From Neophaeotheca triangularis (Eukaryota), in the NCBI GenBank assembly GCA_054600435.1, contig BAAIJX010000057.1, positions 62,001 through 126,000 of the forward strand: a stretch of 64,000 nt of DNA, read 5' to 3'. Position 1 is the first letter of the stretch. Every line of letters starts with the position of its first letter. Positions 46,389-62,071 of this stretch are shown in pieces. The position numbers and the translations under genes are program-made. The notes under the pieces were generated by a model. That model worked only from the letters and a program-made list of their open reading frames with translations. It searched no databases and was not told the origin of the DNA.

Positions 46389-49376
46389 TCAAAGCCTCCC
46401 ATCCCCCCCAGACCTGCCCACAGTAATCGTCTCCAAATTCCGCGCACAAGCCTTGACAGCCGGGCCCTCCCACCACACCTTCCCCGCCTCCTCCCCATCC
46501 CCTCCACCATCCAGCCTCCCCAACCCCCCATTCCGAACCCACTGCCCGACAATCCCATGCACAAACTCCAACTTCCTCTGCAATAGATTCGCAACCACAA
46601 GCTTCTGCCTGCTTCTCTCACCCCCATGCAACAGCGCCGCAGTGCTGTCGGCGTGGACTTCGCGGTCGTTGACGTGTTCGGCTAGCAAGTCGGAGCGGGT
46701 TGCGAGGTGCGTACACGCCGAAGCGCTGAGTAGCGTTGCGGAGACGTGAAGGCCGTCGGCGCCGAGTACCAATTTCGTGTGGTCCGGGAAATGCACTTGG
46801 AGGGAGCCGTCGGCGAAACCCCAGATTCCTGGGTTGCCGAGGCGTTGGTAGAAGCGGATGAAGTTGTGGGCGCGAGCTGGGTGCGTTGAGGCGGTGGCGG
46901 AGGCGGCGGAGGGCCGGTTGGAGCGCTCTTCCCCGTTGAGCGTTTGGCACATGTAGCGCGCGAATTTGATCCATAGGATGCCCATCGTGTGACGCCTTTC
47001 GGCTTCCGCGGAGAGGTGGCCGGCGAGGGGATCGTCGTCGACGCCGGTTTTGACGCTGCCCAGGCCTTTGTAGACCTTGCGCACGACGCCCTCCTCGCCT
47101 AGGTCCTCGGAGATTTCAAACGGAATTCGCTCCATGCCTTGAAAGGTTTTGGTGTTTACTCGCTCGATCCACTTGGCTCCGCTGCGAACGACGACGTGGG
47201 TGACTGGCTGGTATTCGGTTCTGTTGGACTCGTTGATGATGATGCCGACTGTGCCGTCTTCGGCTACGTAGCCTACGCCGTGTTTGCGGCTATAGTCGAC
47301 CCATCTAGTGACGAAGGGAAGATTCTCCGCCTCTGCTGGGTCTGTCTTGGGGAGTCGGGTGGAGTTGCGCAGCGCCAGTCCGAGATTGTGGTGCAATGTC
47401 TTCAGCCGCGAGAGCACACTCGGTGGGTCTGTACCCTGCAAGCAGTTGGTTGAGGCAGGTGGGCTAACCGATTCACTTGCCTTTCTCGGCACTGGCAGTC
47501 GCTTAGACATCTGCGGAGGCGGTGGTAGGGAGAGTGTCGCCGATTCGGCGGTCTCGGGCTTTTGTGTCTTCTGCTTCTCCTTGTCGGATTCTGGATCCGA
47601 CAGTATCTCTATCACTTCAGCGTCGGCAGGCTTCTTGCGAGCTCTCTTGACGGGCGATGTCTTCTTCAGCTCGTCCAAAGTAGCTAGCGGATCTTGTCTC
47701 GAAGCAGAGGGGGCGCGCTCTCGTCTGGCGGTGGGCTTCGGTCTTCTCGCGAGGCTTGCATCCGCGCTTCTCTTGACTGTCCCTATTCGTTGCGGTTTTG
47801 ATTCGCTGGATCCTTGTGATTGCGAGTTGGACGATACACTGGACTCCTTAAGTGTCTTGGGCGCAAATGTCGTCCCAGTCCTGGTCTTGGGGACCCGCAA
47901 GCCATCCAACGGTCCATCGGGCTGCACACGATGCGTCTCTGAAGTTTTTGCGGCTGTTTCCTCGCTAATAGTCCGGCCGGCCTTGCGGATGGTGCCTGTC
48001 CTACCTGCTGGTCTCGATGGTGGAGGCATCAAATCTGCATCTCTTGCTCCTCGTGCATGCATCGGGCGTTGAGAAGCCACCTCGTTCTGCGATATCTCTC
48101 GGAGCCCACCGCTTTGTGCTTTTCGCACTTCCTGCGCTTCCTCTTCACAGACTTCGCCCGGGAATGTGTTCAAAGGAGACTTGTACACCTCGTCTTTCTT
48201 GATCGGCATGGTTGGTACCGTCCCCATTTGCTCCTCCGCGACCATGTCGTGTACTATACTCCTGACCCTCTTTCCGCTGTTCAGTGGGAAACGCTTCCCT
48301 TCAGAGTACTCGCCCACGCCTGAAGCTTTGCAGATCTCCCACCATGAATCGCTGTAGCCTTTCCTGTGAGTCTCGGCGGTCGGCATTCCGACATTTGGCC
48401 AAGAAGGCGCCTTTTCCCGCGCGGTGGATGGTATGCTGGTTGGAACGAAAGCGATCTTGAAGAACGGGTGGCTGACGATCTTATCCGGGTTCGGACGCAA
48501 TTCCTCTGGCACCAGAAGAGTCGAAACCAAGTCTCGTAAGTCTGCGCTGATGTTGTTGTTGGTAGCTTTGAGCTCCGGCCACGAGTAATCTCCAACTTTG
48601 AGCTTCTTGTAAATCTCCTCCTTGCTGCTTGCGTGAAAAGGCGCTTTACCAACTGCAAGCGTGTACGCTATGACCCCTATTGCCCACAAGTCAACCTTTT
48701 CGCTGTGACCCTTGCCCTTCTCGAGGATCTCCGGAGCCAAGTAGTTCGGTGTACCGCACATGGTGGTGCGTCTTTTGACCTCCATTTCCTTTTCGGTGAC
48801 CAACAAGGCGGCCAGCCCAAAATCTCCGACCTTGACGTTCATATTCGAATCCAGGAAGAGGTTGCCGGTCTTGAGGTCTCGGTGCACTATGTGCCTGTGA
48901 TGCAAGTACTTGACGGCGCCGCAGATATGTATCACGAAGCGCCGTATTTCTGGTAGCGTAAGGCATTTGCGCCTTTTAAGCATGTCCGCAAGCGAGCCAT
49001 TGGAACATAGCTCGAGCACCACGTATGTCGAAGTCTGGAAGGAGAAGGCCCGGTAGAAGGTGACAATGTTCGGGTGGTTGAGTTTCGAGTGTATCTGTAA
49101 TTCTGTGACGAACTGCAAAGGCTGTTAGACTCCATCGACGGCGACATCCACCCGTCCTTGATTGGTCTCTACCTTTTGCGCCAGCTTCGCCGGTTCCATC
49201 TTCGACTTGACAATCTTGAGAGCAAACATCTGTCCCGTGGGCTTGCTGCCCTCGAATCTCTCCGCGCGATGGCATATGGCAAAGCCGCCCTTGCCCAGAG
49301 CCGAGCCAGTCGCATAGTTGGTGCCATGTGGTTCCGATACAATCGGAGGCGGTGGTTCAGCGTGCACAGAAGACAT
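46389..49376 (-). CDS. CDC5: Polo-like kinase (CDC5/PlkA); exons 49376-49173, 49112-46389
   Basis: LGKGGFAIC, HRDLKTGN, DFGLA, TMCGTPNYLAPE, and polo boxes (FVTRWVDYSRKHGVGY; GSLQVHFPDHTKLVL). Confidence 0.95.
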
Positions 49377-49728: not shown

Positions 49729-50454
49729 CTACCTTCCACCTGCGACATCGATGATGGTCCCGGTGACATACGATGCGGCCGGCGAGAGTAGCCAAACGAT
49801 GGCCTCCGCAACTTCAGACGCTTCACCAGGTCGACCCAGAGGGGTGGCGTTTCCGAATCGTTCAACTCTTGATGGGTCCGAAGCATGGATGTCGGTCTTG
49901 ATGATTCCAGGCCGTACAGCATTCACCCTGATACCCTTGGGACCCAGTTCCTTCGCGAGGCCGACAGTCAGAGTATCCATGGCGCCCTTGCTGCCGGCAT
50001 AATCCACGAACTCGTTGGGGGATCCTAGACGAGCCGCAGCCGAGGAAATGATTACAATGCTGCTGTCTTTTGGCAATCTCCTTGCAGCTTCTCGAGCACA
50101 CAAGTATGAGCCGAGTACATTCGTGTCGAACACTTGGCGCAAGCGTTCGAGGCTCATTTCTGCCAGGGGAAGCTTGGGCGCTGTTATTCCAGCATTGATG
50201 ACAACGCCTTGGACTGGTCCGTACTGTGCCTCCATCGAGTCGAACAATCGGACTACGTCCATTTCTTGAGTGACATCTCCCTGCAATATCACACCCTTGC
50301 CTCCCGACTGATTGATTGCCTCAACAGCTGCTTCTGCTGAAGATGCGTTTGTAGCGTAATTGACACCGATGTTCCAGCCTCGCGAACCCGCCAGACGAGC
50401 GGTGGCATTGCCGATTCCTCGACTACCACCAGTCACCAGGATATTTTGTGTCAT
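49729..50454 (-). CDS. Short-chain dehydrogenase/reductase of bacterial YgfF/glucose-1-dehydrogenase-like type
   Basis: TGGSRGIG, NAG, catalytic YAGSK, SSAAARLGSPNEFVDY, VRPGIIKTDIHA and terminal DVAGGR. Intronless. Confidence 0.92.
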   Translation of the reverse strand: MTQNILVTGGSRGIGNATARLAGSRGWNIGVNYATNASSAEAAVEAINQSGGKGVILQGDVTQEMDVVRLFDSMEAQYGPVQGVVINAGITAPKLPLAEMSLERLRQVFDTNVLGSYLCAREAARRLPKDSSIVIISSAAARLGSPNEFVDYAGSKGAMDTLTVGLAKELGPKGIRVNAVRPGIIKTDIHASDPSRVERFGNATPLGRPGEASEVAEAIVWLLSPAASYVTGTIIDVAGGR

Positions 50455-51170
50455 TTTCAATAAGAGAGCAGATTGTTGTTTGCGTGTGCAACACGCATCT
50501 AACGGTACCGTGTCTTCAACGCTTGGTCATGGAATTGAATACCGATATCGGGCTGTTCAACAAAGCGAAGTGGCTATAGCCAATCAAATTCTGGCGCTGT
50601 ATTCGCACGGCTGAACTTCACCAGGCGAAAAATCCCTGGTGATTAATTGCCCGAGCTTGCCTCGGGCCTATACTACTATGCGGACCTTCGACAATTCGTA
50701 CCCTAACGCTAAGGAATGATTGGCTGTCGTTACTCTAGATGATTGGCTGTCGTTGCTCCAGGGTTAAATCATCGTAACGTGACCTAAAGGTTATATAGAT
50801 ACCTTCGTTCTAATATATACCTAATATACATACCTAACAAAAATCTACTACTACAACATTTCTATGACTATCTATAACATAAATCTAACAACAATTACGA
50901 TCACTTCACTACTTAATACTTTACGCACCTCCTTCTATAACAACAAAGTATGTTATATAACAATAATTGACAAGAATTTCGACACTTCCTACGTACTCCC
51001 GGGGCTTCCTTTTGCTATGTCTTGGCATTACTATATGTCGCATTCTCAGATTTCCTACTCCTAACATTAATCTAATAACAACTCCCTAACATTATTATAT
51101 CGCTAATATCATTACCTATTATCCCTTAACTATCACTTCCATTAGTACGCCTATAGTATAAGCCGCTTCT

Positions 51171-51620
51171 CCTAATAAAAAGCTAATAATAAGCTAATAG
51201 AAATCTAACAATACTATACTACGTACTTCTATACCTCGAGGTCACATCTACTCCCCCTATAATTACTATCCCTTCTAACAAAAAGTTGCTAATAGTAATC
51301 TAATAGAAATCTAATACTTACGTACTCCTATACCTATACCGCATTCATTCACTTTTCAATAACCTATCGTTCCTAATAAAAACTCGTGGACGGTAATCTA
51401 ACGAAAATCTAATAATACCCTCGTACGTATATATACTACTCCTAGATATGTCTACCCCTTCTCTAATAACCTACTTCTCCTAATAAAAATCTAACGGTAA
51501 TCTAATAGACATATAATACTATCCTATCGCGTATCTGTTCTCAAACTATGTCAGAATGCCCTACTAGTAACCTATTTCTCCTAACAAAAAGCTAATAACA
51601 ACTATTTAGACACCCTATAA
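51171..51620 (+). repeat. Five imperfect ~102-bp units, each starting with a CCTAAYAAAAA-like site and built of ~11-bp CTAAY sub-repeats
   Basis: Unit starts at 51171, 51274, 51372, 51479 and 51580. Confidence 0.75.
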
Positions 51621-51703
51621 CACCCCTATCTAATACTATCCCTTCTCCCTCTCCCTAGTAAGCCTATACACATATAATAGTAATATAATAACAATTCGGT
51701 AGG

Positions 51704-54700
51704 ATAGAGGGTCGTGTTTATACTACCTATTATACTAAAAGACTAGTATTAGAGTTCTCGAAAGGATGTTAGGTACTTAAGACATGTAATCCTTACTATA
51801 ACCGAAATCGAAAGGCTTTAACAAAACTACGTATATCTAGCCCACATTATAGCGAGTATAACGCTATTACTATAGGATATCGGATCCCTAGTTAAGAGAC
51901 TATATAATAATAGCATTTAAGGCGTAAAACTACTACGTCCTAACGCGAGCAACGGTATACTAATATCTAGTAGGCACATATAGATAATCCTTATCCTTAG
52001 CCTACTCCCTATCCTTAGGCATCTCTCTATCCTTAGGTAGCTCCCTATCCGTAGGTAGCTCCCTATCCGCATATAGCCCCCCGTCCGTAGGAGGCTACTT
52101 AACTATGCCTTATGCCCTCTACCTAAGCTTTATCGCTACTTACTTAGGCCCCGTTAGACCCCCTTCGCGAAGGTACGTACACTACTCTAGTTAAATACTA
52201 TCCTCTCTCGAGCCTATAGGATCTTTCTTAACTAGTAGTCTCTAGTCGTGATTAGGACAAAATCTAGTAGTAGTTAGCGACCTTAGACTAACGAGAGTAG
52301 TATTATTATACCTACTATAGGGAGCTTTAGTTCGACCTCTCCTTACAAAATGGCATTTACTAAAGGTACTTCATTCGCGACCGAGCTAAGCCTAAATCCG
52401 AGCCCTTTCTTATGTCTACTAAAAACAATATAGATCCTAGAGATATACCTAACCTTCTAGAACTTATAGACATCGAGTAGCTCCTTATTACCCTAATACA
52501 CATTAGTATATACATGTATTACGTTAAAGGCATATAGTATAGGTATAAAGATTATGTTATAACCTTCCTCCGTAATGTCCCTAATATCGTTACTATACTA
52601 CCCTGACTTCTAGTAGAATATGATCTCATACTAATCCGGCCCTAGTAGAGTTATGGCGATAGGGGAGACAATGTCGTCCGACAATTCAAACGAGCATTCA
52701 CTATCCGTTAATAGAACATGTAGCGCTAGCTAGAATATCTCTATAAACATTATCCTAGATTCCGCGATATCTCTATTAATTAGTCGCGTCTCGTATAGTT
52801 ACCTAACGATACCGACGTCTTCTATGATATCTAAACTATTGTAGAGCTAGATGATACCTATAATACTAATGCGATATTTAACAGCGTCGCTAACGAGGAC
52901 CTTAAGTAGGAGATTAAGCATTACACTATTCCTAATACCTAACTACCCTATAGCAAACTTAAGGATCTTAGACTTAGTACGTCTCGTTCCTAACAATAAA
53001 CAATAGTTTTTGTTATTATCCGTTAAGTAATTTGCTCGTTCTTACCTAGCTAAAGCTACCTACCTATTTCTTCTACCCTTATATTCCTTTCCTGTTTATC
53101 ACTACTACTCTATTCCTAACAAGAATAGATCTTTTTGTTATTAGAATCTAACTGTCTTTTAGGACTTAGTATCGACTATAGAAACCTTATGCCGGATATC
53201 TAGTAGCTATAGCTTAAAACACTTCGCTATTCTACGTAGGGTCGTAGGTAAAGGATTTTCTCCCTTATATTCCTATATCTTTTCCTATGTAGCTACGCTA
53301 ACTAGGCTATTCCTCGCTGTCGAATAACTAGGCTTATCTTTCTTATATAGACCTAGTACCTCCTTCGGTTCTATAATAGACAGTTTACGAAGCACGATAG
53401 GTTTCGCTATACTACGTTTAATATCTAGATAAGGGATCTTAGTAGTAGCCGTTCTTATTAGATACTGAATCGTAAGAATAGTGTCCCTCTATCGCTCGAT
53501 AAGCTACGCGACGCTCTTATAGAGGAAGCGCTATAGGCCTAATCGCTTATAAACTAAATTGTCCGTAGCATAAGTAACATTAAAGGTATCTATCTATTCT
53601 AGAGCTGTCGTCGCCACGAGCTATCTACATATGTATATACCCTAGGGAAGCCTACCTTTTTTTTTACTTTTAGCGCTACTAATACCTAGTAGTATAATAT
53701 CTAGAAGCATTTCCTAGACTATTAGTAGTAGAAGTATAGTAGTGACTCTAAGAGGTACTATATTAACCGCTATAACATACGCGTATGCCCCTATATCGTA
53801 ACCTAGCACTTTAGCGACCGCTTCTGCCTATTCTTCGACATCGTTATGGCCCTAAAGTTTAGTATTATCGATTACTAGTAGAGGTTCGAATTTTAGGGCT
53901 GTAGTAGTACTTATATCTATAGATTTGCTTTTTGTTAGGATATGCCTAAAGTATATACGAACCTCGAAATAGAGATTAGTAGGGACTAATTCACATAGTT
54001 TTAGGAGCGCTATATAATAGTAATGAACCCGGAGCCTACATGATAACGAGTACTTATAGGAGAGAGAGGCATTATTAATAGTAACTGCTTTAAGCTTAAA
54101 AACAATATGGCATACCTATCTAATGTAGTGAATTGGGTATAGCACTACATCTATAACGAGTAGTATTGTCTTCGGCGCCGCATTAATGTACCTAATACGC
54201 TAAAGGAATGTCGATTCTACTTTCCTTAGAGCGCTAGACCTACTAAAGTTAATAAGAAGAGAAACCCTAACTACTAGTTATTCTATACTGCCTCGAATAA
54301 AACTAACATGAATTAGTATAACCCTACTATTAGTCTCGGATAGCAGGCGAATAGCGACATCTCCCTATACACGTCTCTTTAGGTAGTACTAACTTATGTT
54401 ACTAAGTACTATACGAAAGATAAGCCCTAGACTAACACTTACTAGTATATATTAAGGCTCCTTACTCCTTACCTTAACGAGTCCTAACTAAAACTATCCT
54501 TTATGTCGAAGATGATAAACAAACTAATTGCTAAGCGAGACTAGTCCGCTTAGGAGGTATCCTACATTCTATTTAGGCTTTAACTATATAGTAGTAGTCA
54601 TGAGGTTATTACCTTTAACTATCGACCTAAGTACCTCTTTAGGGAATCTATAGAGCTAAACGAAGATAGTATAGAGTAGGACACTAGTAAGAGTATACTT

Positions 54701-57000
54701 GAGAAGTATAAAGCCCGTAATGCCGAGTACGACTACTCGCTACTATGCTTCCTTTAGGGCTATAAACATGTAGTACATAAGAAGTATCGTCCTCGACCTC
54801 GCGCTCGTAATTACGTCATTATATACTAGCTATAGTATGTTCCTTATAGCGAAGATCTCGAAGACTATTACTATATAAAGATTATATTATACTACCCTTT
54901 CTATATATATCCTACCTTACTATATAAAGGTGCCCTTACCTAGAAGGCGGCCTATCTCTTATACTAGGAGTCTTATAAGTATAAGCTAGACTTCCTTAAA
55001 TAAGAGCTACTACTACCTAATAACGAGGAGTTTAAGTTTAAGGATTCGGAAGATAACATTATCGATAAATAGGAGTAGCTCGCTATAGAAACCGCTATTC
55101 GTAACCCTATAGAGAGATTAGAGGACCCCGACAATCTAGGGTTATATACTAAGGACTAGAAGTATAACTAGAGCTTCTATATCGGTACCTATCTCGATAC
55201 TAGTATCTATAATGGCAAACAATACTAGAAGCGTTAGAAAGAACTCTTCCTAGACGTTTCTCGCGTTACCTAGCACTTAATAGATGTTCTATCTACCTTA
55301 GCCCCTAAATAGCGTGTAATCTATAATATAGTGATAAGTCACTATACTAAGTTTATCTAAGGCTATAGCCCCCCTCCGTTATTGCTTAACATTAATAGTC
55401 GAGCTAGTACCGGTAAGTCATTCATTATTAATGTCATCTCTACCTACCTTATAGCTAAAGCTAGCGACTAGGTTATTATATGGTGCGCTCTAACTAGTAC
55501 TGCATCCTTTAGCATTACTAGGAGCACGTTATACTCCCTTTTTAAACTCCTAGTATAGAAGGTTAAAGAAATGCTACTACTTATACCTAACTCTCTTAGC
55601 GCCCTTTAAAGTATACTCCGTAACATCTAGTACCTTATTATTAATAAAAAATCTATAGTTAGCTTAGCCACTTTATCCTATATCGAAAAGCGCCTTATTA
55701 AGGCCTTCCTAGATTAGAGAGATATCCCGTTTAGCGGCATATCCATTCTTTTATTTAGCGATTTCTAGTAGCTCCCTCCTATAGCGGATAAGGCCCTTTA
55801 CTTTAACATCTAGCGATCGGAACCCTATACTAATAATAACAATTTCGTACCTACTAATAATGCCCGTAGTTCCTAATCCTCTTCCTAGGATATACGAGAG
55901 CTACCTAACAACAACTCTCGTATAGCTAACAATATTTAACTAGCTATCTACTTTAATTAAAGCGTATCCTAGGATGACATCGAGGGTTACTACAAATACT
56001 ATACGTTTAATTAGAGCATTAAGCTTTAGGTTTAGTAGCATTAAGACGCTAACTAGAACGCTTTCCGGGAAGCCCTCGATAGTCTTCGATTCTGTTTAAT
56101 CACTATAGAACACTAGTAGACTCTCGTATCTCGCTACTAGGTTAATTTGACCTTTAATAAGATTAAGTAATTCGACGATACTATCTACCTATACCTAACC
56201 TCTATAGTAATAAATGAATATAACTACCGTTAGTAGTAGTATAGTAGATAGCTAGTACTTAAAGTCCTTATGTCATATTGCCCTAACGGTTATATCGTAG
56301 AACAAGCCTAAGTAGCTAAAGCTAGCTAACTAGAGTAGTACCTAGAGCTTAGCATTAGCTATAAGTTAATGTGTCTTAAGAATATCTAGACGGAGCGTAG
56401 GATAGTTAATAGGACCCTTTACCGCCTTTACGACATCGTTTAGTCTGTTAACGCTAATGTCTAACGTAACTAACTACTCTACTTACTTGTCGCTCTCCCT
56501 TCGAAAAGCTATTACGGACCTAGAGTTAAGACATACGCCTAGCATAGATCTAAGTACTCTATAGTACTAATCTTCTACTTATAGAGGGACTTTTATAAGA
56601 AGGGGGAGGTATAGTACTATAACTAGTTCCCCGTTAAATTAGCATATATACTTACTATCTATAAAGCTTAAGGTATAACTATAGAAAAGGCTATACTAGA
56701 TCTTACTATTAGGGTACGGAACATGGCTGTTTTTTATGTTGTAGTCTCTCGCGTAAAACGGCTTAAGGACTTAATGTTCAAGTAGATATTCGACCTTAAG
56801 CAGCTCTAGGCTACTAGTAGTATTACTACTAATATGTATCTCTAAGACTACGAATAGCGACATACCTAACTACTCATTTCTACTAACATAGCGTTAACCT
56901 AGGCGACTACTACATAATTACGAAGTGCCCTTTCCTAGCGACTCCTCTCTATCCTTTAGAATTAGCGTTAAAATAGCGGTACCGTTTAACCGGAGTAGGA
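51704..57000 (+). pseudogene. RIP-mutated RepHel gene (N-terminal Zn finger, Helitron_like_N, HUH Rep, PIF1 helicase)
   Basis: After reversing TA to CA/TG: CTTC..KRPVSEF..LKTCNPC (~51720-51800), QYRYKGHV (~52540), RFRY..FN (~53400), FFTFSAAD..W (~53660), EFQGRGSTHIHG (53888-53923), W.AN.DISP..YVAKYCTK (~54340-54420), GRAGTGKS (~55400), IDEKSMV (~55640), FGGISILLFGDF.QLPP (~55730), QFPVKLA..LTIHKAQG.T (~56625-56680). Intron 52977-53162. End approximate. Confidence 0.88.
52005..52095 (+). repeat. 18-bp tandem repeat x5 (CTCCCTATCCGTAGGTAG-like) in the RepHel N-terminal region
   Basis: Seen directly. The unit length is a multiple of 3, consistent with a coding hexapeptide repeat. Confidence 0.75.
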
Positions 57001-57346
57001 GGAAGATCTCTATACTAGTAGTCGTCCCCTAAATAGAACCTTGGGTATCTAAACCTTACCTAATAGAAACCTATTAATGTTAGAAAACACATCTCTCTAC
57101 TAGCGTCTCGCTACCGTTGCTAATCATATCGTTCATTTCTCCTAATAAAAACTATTAATTTTTGTTAGGTAAGGTCTATCTCACGTTATGCTAGGTAAGC
57201 CGCGTAACCTTTACCCTTACGAATTCTAATCTTTCTCCTACGTCCTCCTCTTCTCTTAGTACTTTCCCTAATATAAACTATCTCTTTTTTGTTATTAGTG
57301 TAGTGTCTTATAAATTATAGAAACACTTGTAACCTTAAAGAACTCG

Positions 57347-57478
57347 GGAAGAGTATAGCGAGGCTATTAACGTATATAATGAATTCCGTACGGTTAAGTA
57401 GATTAGTATAACGGGAAGAACATAGCGAGGCTGTTAAGACATGTAGTAAATTCGGTACAGTTAAGCAGATTAGTATGC
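57347..57478. repeat. ~66-bp tandem duplication between the two element genes
   Basis: GGGAAGA..ATAGCGAGGCT.TTAA...GTTAAG.AGATTAGTAT occurs twice. Confidence 0.8.
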
Positions 57479-57644
57479 CGCGCGAGCGTAGATAACCTTT
57501 ATGTTATATATAACTCCTAAAAAAACACCTAAGGACCTATATACGGCGTAACTACTAGTATATAGTAAACCACATAAACACTATAGCTACCTAGATAGCG
57601 TAGATAACGAAGACTACCTATATAATGACTAACGAGCACCTAGC

Positions 57645-58790
57645 TTAATCTTCGTACTTCCTACTATCGTGACGGTAGTAGCTACACTTACTATGTCTAG
57701 CCTTCCTCTCGAAGTTAACCGCCTATCTAGGAGTATAGACATAGTACTCTATAGCCGTAGTAGTACCCTTACCGCGATAGTAAGAGTATGCCGGAGCGCG
57801 TAGAGTAGACACTATAGTGTCCTCCTAGATACGGCTAATATATGTGAATCGGCGGCGATTCTCGGCGGTTATGTCTATTAAATCAGTCAGCTTTTAAACA
57901 CTCTAATTTCAAATACCCTTAAGGAATCAAACTTACTAGTCTATTATATAGGGGTAAACGCACGATAGAAGGTACCTACTCTACCTATAGTAGGATAGCG
58001 CTCGATAAAGGTCGAGCTAGGGGGGTAGCTAGGAGTATAGTATATAGTAGGAGTTAGGGTTCTAGAGGGACTAGTAGAGGTAGTAGGGGTAGGGGTAGAT
58101 ATAGAGACCCTAGGGGTAGTAGTAAGAGTAGGGGCTAGAGTCTAGAATAGACTAGTAGCGCTAGCTATAAAGAGGTTACATAGTAGCGCTATAAAGGCGC
58201 TAGGTATATAGGGGGAGGGGGCAGCTAACGAAGCGCGTACTAAGACGCTAGTAGGGAGAGGGGACGCCTAGCTAGGAGAAGGAGAAGGGGGGGGAGACTA
58301 GTCGTCTCTACCCCTAGGAGCGAAGCTAGGCGATAGAGAGCGAGCTAGCGATAGAGAGCGAGAGATTAGGGGGGAGCTACCCTTATTAGACCTAGCGGTA
58401 GAAGGTAAGACGGCCGTAGGGACGCTAACCCTAGGTAACGCGAGACTAGCTAACTAACTACTAATAAGGTCGATAGTAGTAGTAGTAGAGGCGCGAGCGC
58501 TACTAATAAAAAGTTAGTTTTCTCCTCATGTTTTTATTATCTAGTAGATTATACATATAACATTAATCTAGTAGGAAATATAAGGCACTTATAGTTAAAG
58601 CTCACGCCGTATTTAGCGCTTAGCGCTACGACCCTAGTATAAGGCACTATAGGTAATGTTAGCCATAAGGGCTAAGGTCTAGCGCTTATTACGCTCGACG
58701 ACTATAGGGGCACTATACTAAGTAGGAGGTATAGTTACTACTACTATTACTATTATTATTACTATTACTATTACTACTACTACGGTTACT
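57645..58790 (-). pseudogene. Second, RIP-mutated spliced gene inside the Helitron: polyQ, then Ser/Pro-rich, then C-terminal putative Cys6 zinc cluster
   Basis: Minus-strand intron 57936-57875 (GTAAGT/CTGAC/TAG) and a second one at about 58605-58503 (GTGAGC/CTAAC/TAG). De-RIP reading gives QQQ.., RSPSPARSPSP and CSHC-x10-C-x19-CGYC-x6-C. Five of the six Cys codons are inferred from TAY. Confidence 0.6.
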
Positions 58791-58841
58791 AAAACTAATA
58801 GAAGAAGAGGAAGAAAGAGAGAGTAAGGAACTAAAGAAGTT

Positions 58842-59101
58842 CTTATAATAAGAACTTAGGTAAGGTTATTGTTCTTACCCTAAGTAAAGTCGAACCTTAT
58901 ATATAGCCCTTAGTAGGATGTTATTGTCGTTAGCGAGCCCTTTATAGTAAGGTAGTATATATCTATATATAGAAGACGCCTTATAATAAGAACTTAGGTA
59001 AGGTTCTTATTAGAAGAGCAAATACGCCTCCTATAGGACCTTATTATCATTAGTAAGATCTTTATCATAAGGTAGCGTCTATCCGTATATAGAAGACGCT
59101 T
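58842..59101. repeat. Imperfect ~120-140 bp direct repeats in the 3' subterminal region
   Basis: CTTATAATAAGAACTTAGGTAAGGTT at 58842 and 58980. AAGGTAG..T.TATC..TATATAGAAGACGC at about 58949 and 59069. Confidence 0.75.
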
Positions 59102-62071
59102 ATAGATAAAAGAACTATAGTAAGATGAAGTCAGGTATTATTATTAGGAGTCTTACCTTTTTTGTTAGGTGTATAGTATAAGGACGTAAGTAGTAAACCT
59201 AAGTGTTAGAGTCGTTCTTTATCGAGAAGTACTTCCTTATATGATGTGAATAGCTAGTGTCGCATCTATGCGACAATTCCTACTTACGTGTTCCTAATAA
59301 TAACAGTTGCCTTTTTTGTTAGTAGTAACCTTTTTATTAGTAGTAACCTTTTTAATAGGAGAACTCTAGATACATACGTGAATGTAAACTAGTCGTTCTT
59401 AAGTTGTTACCTTTTAAGCTAACGTTAAATTGTGAAGTTGATAAAAGCTGACATATGTATAACGGGTAACTCCGCCTAACTCCTTTGCTCCTATTAAATA
59501 TAACAAAAACATCTAAAAAATGCTAGGGAACTTCAGTTTTTGTTAGGAGTCCTATTGTGAATAACTAGGGCATAATTGTTGTTAGGAAGAAGGGTTTTTG
59601 TTATATGTATAGTATAAAAACCTTTAAAGTTTATAACATAAAGTCTGACCTTAATAGAAATAATACTTAAACTCTAACCCTCGGCTTAAATTCGGCATAA
59701 AAGGCATGCTCGGGCTCTATGCTTAGGCGTCGCCTGCTAGAGATCCATATTATACTGTATATCTCCATAAGCAGCTAAAAGCAATGTATGGCCATTTTTC
59801 GCTGACCATGGCATCGTGACGCTTCGACAGGGCAAAGTACCTCGACATCTTCAACCTCTGGGTTGATGATGTTCCTCGGCGGATCCAAGAAGCGCGCCCA
59901 TTGTCTTCCACACATGGCTTTAGAAAGGATTTCGCCGTACGGCGTCGGGCATGTCTCCTGCTTAGGAGGGGAGCCATGCCGCAAGTATCCGAATTCTACT
60001 GGGCACACCCGGTGGAGCGGTGGGCATTTGAACGTGCAATCGACATCTCGCTGGTCCTAGCAGATCGCTGCTAACAACTCGAAGGCTCCATCACTAAAAG
60101 CTGCAAATCAGTGCGGATTAAGTATTTCTTTTTCTTTTGGAAGTATCAAGAAGCAAGATGTCTAGCCGTGGCACCGACCAAGGTCATGCCGTGGCTCATC
60201 ACAGAGAAGCTGCGTGCGGTGCCGCAAGTTACCGCACTGAGACCGTCGTCTTCAACGAGGATTCACCGTGACCAGCTCGTACTCCACTCTGACATCGCGA
60301 TCGTCTCAGTATTAGATGCTGAACCTCAAAACATATACAGCATACAATTGCGTACTCTATACCTCCAAGGTCGCCATCTCCAAAAGCCACCTCCAAGATC
60401 GATGCGCACGAGCAGGCACCGAGGCCAGGCGATGTCTGACTTTACCCAAAGCCAGCTTTTTGGGCCTGGACCCCGACGCCAAAGCGTACGGGAGGCGTCG
60501 CGCCTATCTGCTCCTTGCCCGCCGTTTTTAACACGCTGCTCATCGATAGTGTGAAAACAAGACAATTGACAGACCGCTGCGTCACGGAAGAAGCGCCGAG
60601 GTACCGCTGGCGCAGTCAACAGTAGAAACTGAACCTTAGTGCCAAGCTTTTCAATGAGCGATCGATGTTGATAGGATATTGACGACGCGATGATGGAAGG
60701 ACCGCACGGCCACAATACCATACAGGCGCCCGAATCACATCTCTGTATGACGTTGCCTGGTTGACGTGATCTTCTTGTGAGGCTCTCCGTCGTGTCAACC
60801 GCATGGCAACCACCGATATTTAGAGGCTCGATCCGGCCGGTTCTTTGCTATGGCGCCCTTCTCACGCGACTTGACTCTTGAGCACCTCGGAGAAGCAGGA
60901 ATACTCCACGGGAAGACGGTGAGAAGATGAGCTTACGCTCCACCACATATATCATCCGGCAAGGCTTGACGACGCTCATGGCAGATTTGTAGAATACAGA
61001 GTAAGTTACGGGGCAGCTGTCTTGGCTCATGTTCTTTTGCAGGCTGCGACGACCTCGGACGATAATAGAAAGATCCTCCTGAACGTTCAAAGCCCACAAG
61101 AGATGTTCATCAAGCATTTTGCACGGCCCTGCATCTGGCTAATATCCCGGTGGAACGGTCCAAAAGCGGCGTGGTCCCGGCAACACCTACCCTTTGGTTC
61201 ATCAGTCGTGGTGGTGTCGAGCCCGCCATGCTGCAACCTTCTCGTGGTGCTTGTGATGTGAGTTGTGCACGACGCGCGAGCCGCGGTATCGGCACCATGC
61301 AGTGCCATGATTGGGTACATGCGGCGCTCCATCAGCCGTTCAATTGGCTATTGAACCAAAAGTCAAGTTCACCAGACTTTTCGCCGACCGTTAGCTCAAG
61401 CTTTTTAACCTTTCGTTAGTGCATCTGTACTGTGAGGGGAATCGTGGGATTGCGGATCATGGGGCTAGCGTAGGAGCGTGCGGGGAGAAGCCAGATTTTG
61501 AAGACCATCAAGTTCCATTGCCCGAGAGCCTGCCATGAGTATGACCCGCTTTGTCGATCAGTGCCTGCCCGTGGTATCAACTCTGCCTGGCCTTGACCGC
61601 ATCAACAGACAGTCAACAAGAACAATCCATAATACCAACGGAGGCACTTAGGAATGCAATTCATTACAGTCCGTGCCATTCGAGGTCTTTCCACCAACAG
61701 ATTCCAGCGTTGCGTTTTCCATCACTCGAGTGGCCTCGGCTTCGACCAAGCGGATGCCATCTGATCTAGAAGGCATAGACTGCTGCCCGTCGACTTCCCA
61801 CTGGTACTTGAATACATCTTACTTTTGCGGGGCCGTGTGCAATATGGCAAACAACCGAGCACTACCGAGGCACTTTCGTGTACACTGCGTGTGACCCTCA
61901 TGGCCGCTAGTAGCAGATGGTGGGCTATGTCTGTGATATCTGGCTCAGGAAGCGTATTTGTGTTTCGATCTAGGCCCTGTACTCTTGACTTAATTGCAAC
62001 GACCGCCTCTTCGCAGACCACAGGTTTTCTTTTTCCGTGCAACGACTTTCGACTCGACTAGAGAAGTCAAG

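Follow-up and report, generated by a model that had tools for sequence, protein, structure and literature searches.

A possible second gene, convergent with the transposase gene, in a RIP-inactivated fungal HLE2 Helitron

Introduction

Second ORFs in Helitrons of fungi have been described for the FoHeli elements. According to the main text of Chellapan et al. 2016 (PMC5148889), FoHeli3 carries an additional, non-overlapping ORF on the opposite strand, which has no domain and was found only in Helitrons. Table S2 of the same paper lists second ORFs of 342-451 aa for FoHeli3, FoHeli4 and FoHeli5, all without a known domain, confined to Helitrons and head-to-head with the transposase; among the proteins given in this paper are FOXG_16389/FOWG_17139 (383/374 aa), FOQG_16342 (345 aa) and FOMG_18626 (451 aa). 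The hallmarks it gives for FoHeli3-5 are a length of 9-11 kb, a 5' TGCCT with a hairpin, an inverted repeat of 13-16 bp with its 3' copy located 20-40 bp from the end, and a 3' CTCCTGT. A preliminary description of the locus presented here regarded FoHeli as a single-ORF element and derived the novelty of a second gene from this, a premise that is contradicted by the main text (for FoHeli3) and by Table S2 (for FoHeli3, 4 and 5).

The HELIANO paper (PMC11417382) reports 20 extra domains that are stably carried by HLEs. They comprise RPA, OTU, endonuclease and 17 others, and transcription-factor-like ones such as B3 and STPR are among them. It also reports DUF6570 as almost exclusive to HLE2, and the criterion it applies to accessory domains is recurrence at a conserved position across copies. 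Capture of genes by Helitrons, introns included, is described for plants, for Pleurotus (HELPO) and for Fusarium, the latter with 27 captures.

Here we have analysed a 64-kb stretch of fungal DNA (the window) containing a RIP-inactivated Helitron with a putative second gene. Compared with FoHeli3-5 as listed in PMC5148889, the element is likewise a fungal HLE2 of similar length (about 9.1 kb against 9-11 kb) with a 5' hairpin and an inverted repeat, and the putative gene is likewise on the strand opposite RepHel. It also resembles the FoHeli3-5 second ORFs in size (at least about 330 codons), in the lack of a conserved domain and in its small candidate introns, the introns of FoHeli3-5 being implied by the gene spans. 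On the other hand, the listed second ORFs lie upstream of the transposase and head-to-head with it, whereas the gene in the window lies downstream and tail-to-tail, and the 3' CTCCTGT of FoHeli3-5 is missing from the window element. As an extra coding sequence at one side of RepHel in an HLE2 with DUF6570, the gene is like the accessory domains treated in the HELIANO paper, but unlike these it has no recognisable Pfam domain. With the reported Helitron captures it shares the position of an intron-bearing gene within the 3' part of the element; in contrast to these, no parental host gene was detected in protein searches. Second ORFs of fungal HLE2 elements are already known, and the present case departs from them in being arranged tail-to-tail and in a protein family that is unannotated and apparently unrelated.

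Results

The element

The window has a GC content of about 54%, interrupted by a single AT-rich block at about 50,560-59,720 with GC of about 0.33-0.51 and with extreme RIP indices (TpA/ApT about 1.4-4.3; (CA+TG)/(AC+GT) down to 0.04). A six-frame Pfam scan of this block, with X at stops, gave DUF6570 (E 6.6e-8, about 52,400-52,793), Helitron_like_N (E 2.5e-11, about 53,357-53,903) and PIF1 (E 1.7e-7, about 55,400-55,820), all in the same plus-strand frame, and no match in any minus-strand frame. The helicase C-terminal motifs of RepHel are at 56,636-56,764 and end near 56,770. With Rep and a PIF1-type helicase in one plus-strand frame, and DUF6570 upstream of Rep, the element is Helitron-like and of the HLE2 type. 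Three-base periodicity was intermittent in windows from the RepHel gene. Just upstream of the first recognisable RepHel domain, at 51,988-52,091, there are about 4.5-4.8 copies of an 18-bp unit; the period is a multiple of three, and the repeat may perhaps be coding.

At the left end a hairpin with a 7-bp stem, GCCCGAG-CTTGC-CTCGGGC, occupies 50,649-50,667 (DNA fold -8.4 kcal/mol), with TGCCC/TGCCT beside or inside it (TGCCT at 50,658). An inverted match of 13 out of 14 positions connects 50,649-50,662 with 59,702-59,715, near the right end. The CTCCTGT 3' end of the FoHeli type was not found in the element, neither exact nor in RIP-degenerate form, and the right end is therefore only inferred. 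Hairpin and inverted match appear to resemble the termini of FoHeli3-5, a likeness that does not extend to CTCCTGT.

The region of the putative second gene (57,645-58,790) lies inside the RIPed block, 3' of the plus-strand RepHel gene and convergent with it, at 0.5-0.8 kb past the end of RepHel. It is the most extremely RIPed segment of the block (TpA/ApT 4.33), and since RIP is heaviest here the segment must itself once have been repeated in the genome. No sign of a nested transposon with terminal repeats of its own around the second gene was seen in the repeat analysis.

Both arms of the element contain copies of a motif, TTTTTGTTAGG, with 18 matches in the window at no more than one mismatch (0.99 expected), 17 of them in the RIPed block. 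The copies on the left form an array, whereas those in the right arm are inverted and bracket the second gene, with one copy on its RepHel side and the others at 59,159-59,586 (Table 1). These putative arrays look like subterminal protein-binding repeats, which would be unusual for a Helitron. The motif copies around the second gene put it inside the element, and this position is compatible both with an intrinsic gene and with cargo of a multi-copy lineage.

Table 1. Features of the Helitron and its surroundings in the 64-kb window
Feature	Position	Strand	Basis or remark
Polo-like kinase gene	46,389-49,118		left of the short-chain dehydrogenase gene
Short-chain dehydrogenase gene	49,729-50,460	-	adh_short_C2, 2.3e-55
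RIP-inactivated Helitron, HLE2, FoHeli3-5-like; ends approximate, about 9.1 kb	50,648-59,741	+	RIP indices, GC drop, hairpin, inverted match
Left subterminal TTTTTGTTAGG array, 6 copies, about 100-bp spacing	50,833-51,590	-	motif scan
RepHel gene, many RIP stops; recognisable domains only	52,400-56,770	+	Pfam, stops read as X
Right-arm TTTTTGTTAGG copies, inverted (57,159; 59,159; 59,313; 59,537; 59,576)	57,159-59,586	+	motif scan
Last exon of the putative second gene, basic 75-aa C-terminal module	57,645-57,874	-	similarity to P0004; stop TAA 57,647-57,645
Candidate intron 2, 62 nt	57,875-57,936	-	GTAAGT, CTGAC, TAG; GC about 0.29; no periodicity, p = 0.84
Exon 2, low-complexity coding region, 566 nt	57,937-58,502	-	three-base GC periodicity, chi2 30.7, p = 2.2e-7
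Candidate intron 1, 103 nt	58,503-58,605	-	GTGAGC, CTAAC, TAG; GC about 0.25; no periodicity, p = 0.92
Putative exon 1 / 5' region	58,606-58,850	-	triplet run 58,736-58,783 and CT-rich tract
MFS/TRI12-like transporter gene	63,171 onward		at the window's right edge

Features at chance level in RIPed DNA

Several features that would normally point to a gene occur at chance level in the RIPed block. Within 52,400-56,899 the true RepHel frame contains stops at 123 of 1500 codons, against 94 and 90 in two wrong frames, and a low stop count was rejected as coding evidence because the true frame is not the one with the fewest stops. Instead, the true frame is marked by the highest third-position GC and a TAG:TAA ratio of 3:1, with TGA accounting for two of its 123 stops.

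The same holds for splice signals. Intron-like patterns (GTRAGY..CTRAY..YAG) are found three times on the plus and four times on the minus strand of the block, where 4.1 and 3.2 are expected from simulated sequences of the same composition. The two minus-strand introns put forward in the preliminary description do have their signals in place, but signals of this kind are no more frequent than chance would have it.

Tyr, which could be read back to Cys, is in excess everywhere in RIPed DNA, and this excess is due to RIP: Tyr makes up 8.4% of the RepHel frame and 13% of the second gene's last exon, compared with 1.8% in a host gene. The last exon has 11 Tyr/Cys among its 75 residues, and three Y/C-x2-Y/C pairs were reached in 14% of 5000 shuffles; the loose six-site Tyr/Cys pattern discussed below was reached in 5.6% of 5000 shuffles of this exon. 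The lesson for RIPed DNA is that low stop counts, back-reading of Tyr to Cys and matches to splice consensus sequences are no evidence alone, whereas periodicity and an outside relative are.

Gene model

Exon 2 exhibits a strong three-base periodicity (Table 1), the phase of which is constant from 58,540 to 57,940, whereas all 12 of the windows taken from the non-coding arms were without periodicity (p>0.05). Both periodicity and GC collapse exactly at the two AT-rich segments with splice signals. The remaining parts of the model are aperiodic, with p = 0.91 for exon 1 outside the triplet run and p = 0.55 for the last exon. The higher-scoring tandem repeats of exon 2 have periods of 18, 9, 6 and 3, i.e. 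multiples of three; two low-scoring repeat rows, with periods of 10 and 8, share sequence with the 18-nt array.

Read in the frame compatible with intron 2, exon 2 is rich in Ser, Thr, Pro and Ala, and the adjoining frame is rich in His and Gln. The Ser/Thr/Pro-rich frame (58,501-57,938) has the fewest stops, six in 188 codons compared with 25 in 181 in the alternative frame, and a Ser/Pro-rich frame, as had been proposed for this place, is present. The letters at the junction are '...ACT A|GTAAGT' on the side of exon 2 and 'TAG|AC ATA ACC' on that of exon 3, and because of them the 62-nt intron joins the Ser/Thr/Pro frame in phase to the frame of the last exon that is related to an outside protein, P0004 (see below). 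When the exon-3 frame is continued across 57,875-57,960, two of its six stops are TGA, a stop that is rare in RIPed coding frames.

For the 5' part of the gene two models were compared. A run of 16 TAG/TAA triplets is present at 58,783-58,736, and the preliminary description had interpreted it as RIPed polyQ. Across intron 1, the polyQ frame leads into the His/Gln-rich reading of exon 2 and not into the Ser/Pro frame. In the frame that is phase-consistent with the Ser/Thr/Pro reading, the run is AGT/AAT (Ser/Asn) and the CT-rich tract is Ser/Leu, with seven stops in 64 codons, and so the run itself stands while its polyQ reading gives way to Ser/Asn in the only fully phase-consistent model. 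The length of intron 1 modulo three equals the shift in phase from the triplet run to exon 2, an agreement resting on the microsatellite alone. No start codon of the second gene was identified in the putative exon 1 / 5' region.

The His/Gln and the Ser/Pro frames agree equally well with the periodicity seen in exon 2, and in the His/Gln reading the third position is the GC-rich one. An argument of the GC3 type would favour the His/Gln frame; it was not preferred, however, as the 62-nt intron 2 breaks it from the frame related to P0004. The low third-position GC of the Ser/Thr/Pro frame is explained by RIP of NNC-ANN junctions. All in all, the fully phase-consistent model, leading from Ser/Asn over Ser/Thr/Pro to the basic tail, is somewhat preferred over the polyQ/His-Gln model.

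The last exon and its relative

The 75-aa last exon was compared with 1.84 billion representative proteins in a full HMMER pass (E<=0.001). Five proteins were found at this threshold, of which one, P0004 (74 aa, E 1.8e-4), matched as a single collinear stretch. The other four are internally repetitive proteins that matched in four to seven stretches each, and they were rejected as spurious. Pairwise BLASTP of P0004 with the last exon gave 1e-13. In tblastn against the window P0004 matched only at 57,869-57,666 on the minus strand (4e-9), the next best match having an E value of 0.61. Among the 66 aligned positions 30 are identical, and for another 12 the difference comes down to C>T/G>A changes in the codon of the window exon (42/66 altogether), compared with a mean of 13 and a maximum of 24 in 2000 shuffled controls. 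The similarity begins at the proposed exon boundary, which is the acceptor of intron 2. The alignment thus suggests that the last exon has one real relative outside the window.

P0004 is a singleton, a 74-aa ORF from one ENA contig of 567 nt, and may have been called in error on homologous transposon DNA. Its sequence has no stops and abounds in Arg, Ala and Gly, and therefore looks un-RIPed. Both sequences are basic, with 15 basic residues out of 75 in the window exon and 17 out of 74 in P0004. His residue 18 of P0004 is aligned with a Tyr codon in the window that is derivable by RIP from CAY.

Further relatives were sought by several routes. No annotated fungal protein among the 1.84 billion representatives matched the last exon, in a search whose sensitivity is reduced by RIP, and the FoHeli second-ORF proteins were not among the five matches obtained with this 75-aa RIPed query. 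A word-based protein search with residues 290-381 of the window translation gave 13 candidates, none at E<=1. The same kind of search gave 120 candidates for P0004, none of them a longer related protein, and a profile of P0004 and the exon gave seven candidates, with P0004 itself as the only relative. The PDB sequence search returned only noise (E 1.5-1.6). In the ESM Atlas the best value was 0.77, for hypothetical proteins of Ascomycota, which is under the level that counts even as a lead. The AlphaFold2 prediction from the two-sequence alignment had a pLDDT of 53.8 and was unusable. A genome scan covering bacteria and archaea matched 98 stretches, one of which passed; this one was rejected as a chance match because it falls within the ABC-ATPase gene of a bacterial MAG, but in an alternative reading frame.

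The Tyr/Cys pattern

The canonical spacing of Zn2Cys6 clusters (Gal4 type) is CX2CX6CX5-12CX2CX6-8C. The preliminary description had proposed a Zn2Cys6-like domain from six Tyr/Cys codons in the last exon, which are those of residues 29, 32, 43, 63, 66 and 73. The spacing given for them (x2, x10, x19, x2, x6) is exact, but x10 and x19 fall outside the consensus and the pattern as such is within chance. Five of the six Cys had been acknowledged as inferred, and at those sites the window indeed has Tyr codons; all six codons are TAY or TGT and could have arisen by RIP from TGY. Three of the sites, window residues 43, 63 and 66, are Cys in P0004 with the same C-x19-C-x2-C spacing; the first two are Tyr, and P0004 stops short of the sixth. 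Retention of Tyr or His at the Cys sites, which had been named as an outcome speaking against the domain, is thereby seen in part and in one sequence, P0004, with its Tyr at two sites. Pfam gave no family at E<=10 for P0004, in which the Cys are kept, Zn_clus being among the families covered. For the window exon DUF7921 alone was obtained (E 0.15, under its cut-off), in a scan where RIP lowers sensitivity.

The module has some likeness to Gal4-type factors, which are also fungal and have a short, basic, Cys-containing module attached to low-complexity sequence. In contrast, it fails to resemble them in spacing, in position within the protein (the proposed cysteine module is C-terminal), in the Pfam result and in Cys conservation. 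Judged from the two aligned sequences, the conserved part consists of a basic module containing three Cys and possibly a His, and not of a six-Cys cluster. In literature searches we found no account of an accessory gene with Cys or a zinc cluster in Helitrons of fungi.

Discussion

That the Helitron carries a second, convergent and intron-bearing gene, now dead, is probably correct, in view of the relative P0004, the periodicity of exon 2 and the position between subterminal motif copies. The interpretation that we favour, with confidence evenly balanced for and against it, is that a real second protein-coding gene, an orphan accessory borne by a FoHeli3-5-like HLE2 Helitron and arranged tail-to-tail with RepHel, has been destroyed by RIP. 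The gene would consist of three exons (about 58,850-58,606, 58,502-57,937 and 57,874-57,645). Its product would have a long, disordered Ser/Thr/Pro-rich region followed by a strongly basic C-terminal module of about 70 aa with three conserved Cys and one likely His. Such a protein would belong to an orphan family with no recognisable domain, rather than to the Zn2Cys6 factors, and by inference only it may be an accessory protein broadly comparable to the second ORFs, likewise without domains, that are listed for FoHeli3-5. Judging from charge alone, the most plausible role of the basic tail would be binding of nucleic acid. The copy in the window would no longer be functional. Counted against this interpretation are P0004 as the sole relative, the chance-level intron signals, the aperiodic exon 3, and an orientation that is convergent where the FoHeli3-5 ORFs are divergent.

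The strongest competitor, although we regard it as rather unlikely, is captured cargo, i.e. a fragment or a whole copy of a host gene that was taken up as DNA with its introns, by the Helitron lineage or by the present copy alone, and has no role in the element. Captures usually sit in the 3' arm of a Helitron, and the second gene is found in the 3' arm too, bracketed by the motif copies at 57,159 and 59,159 as if it had been inserted into the arm. It is known that Helitrons take up genes with introns, with 27 captures in the Fusarium account, and capture would also agree with the convergent orientation, which is unlike that of the second ORFs listed in Table S2 of PMC5148889. Against this, neither the last exon (searched against the 1.84 billion representatives) nor P0004 led to a host parent, a point of little weight since RIP lowers sensitivity, and the extent of RIP in the segment shows it to have been multi-copy.

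Less probable than capture is that there is no gene at all. The segment would then be non-coding DNA of the right arm, its ORF-like features would result from RIP and low complexity, and P0004 would be a spurious ORF on a homologous element. This would account for intron signals and a Tyr/Cys pattern at chance level, for stop counts that are meaningless in RIPed DNA, for the aperiodic exons 1 and 3 with no start codon found, and for P0004 being a singleton on a 567-nt contig. It does not sit well with a phase-constant periodicity over 566 nt that is absent from 12 of 12 arm windows, with higher-scoring repeat periods that are multiples of three, with the collapse of the signal exactly at the two candidate introns, or with an exon 2-exon 3 join that is in phase and at the boundary of which the similarity to P0004 stops.

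We consider it improbable that the second gene encoded a lineage-specific DNA-binding factor of the element, whose basic Cys/His tail would recognise the TTTTTGTTAGG arrays. A factor of this type would be a second trans-acting component in HLE2 transposition or regulation, and possibly a convergent counterpart of the FoHeli3-5 second ORFs. Least probable is a transcription-factor-like protein in which a polyQ/Ser-Pro activation region is combined with a Zn2Cys6-like cluster of six Cys, and which would act as a regulator of the element or against silencing: six codons derivable from TGY, the three Cys shared with P0004 at equal spacing, the basic module and the presence of repeated motifs that a DNA-binding protein could recognise are outweighed by the non-canonical spacing and C-terminal position, the lack of a Pfam match for P0004 or the exon, the Tyr at sites 1 and 2 and the missing site 6 in the un-RIPed-looking P0004, a pattern within chance, and a polyQ frame that has no connection to the Ser/Pro frame.

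To return to the favoured interpretation of an element-borne accessory gene, the evidence at present consists of one dead copy and one anonymous relative. Should the gene be an intrinsic part of the element, the HLE2 Helitrons of fungi, for which second ORFs are listed but not known to have been studied, would have another orphan accessory gene, and the subterminal motif arrays would have a possible protein partner.

Other repeats were observed near the second gene. Between the two convergent genes, at 57,345-57,476, a 67-bp unit occurs twice in tandem (81% matches), flanked by an imperfect inverted repeat of 39 nt (57,008-57,046 / 57,527-57,565). On the upstream side of the second gene there are direct repeats at a spacing of 120-138 bp, pairing 58,842-58,873 with 58,980-59,011 and 58,914-58,979 with 59,034-59,099, and these may represent a duplicated promoter region.

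The flanks of the element consist of ordinary host genes (Table 1). The short-chain dehydrogenase gene starts about 190 bp from the left end of the element, and the Helitron is therefore located in the promoter region of this gene.
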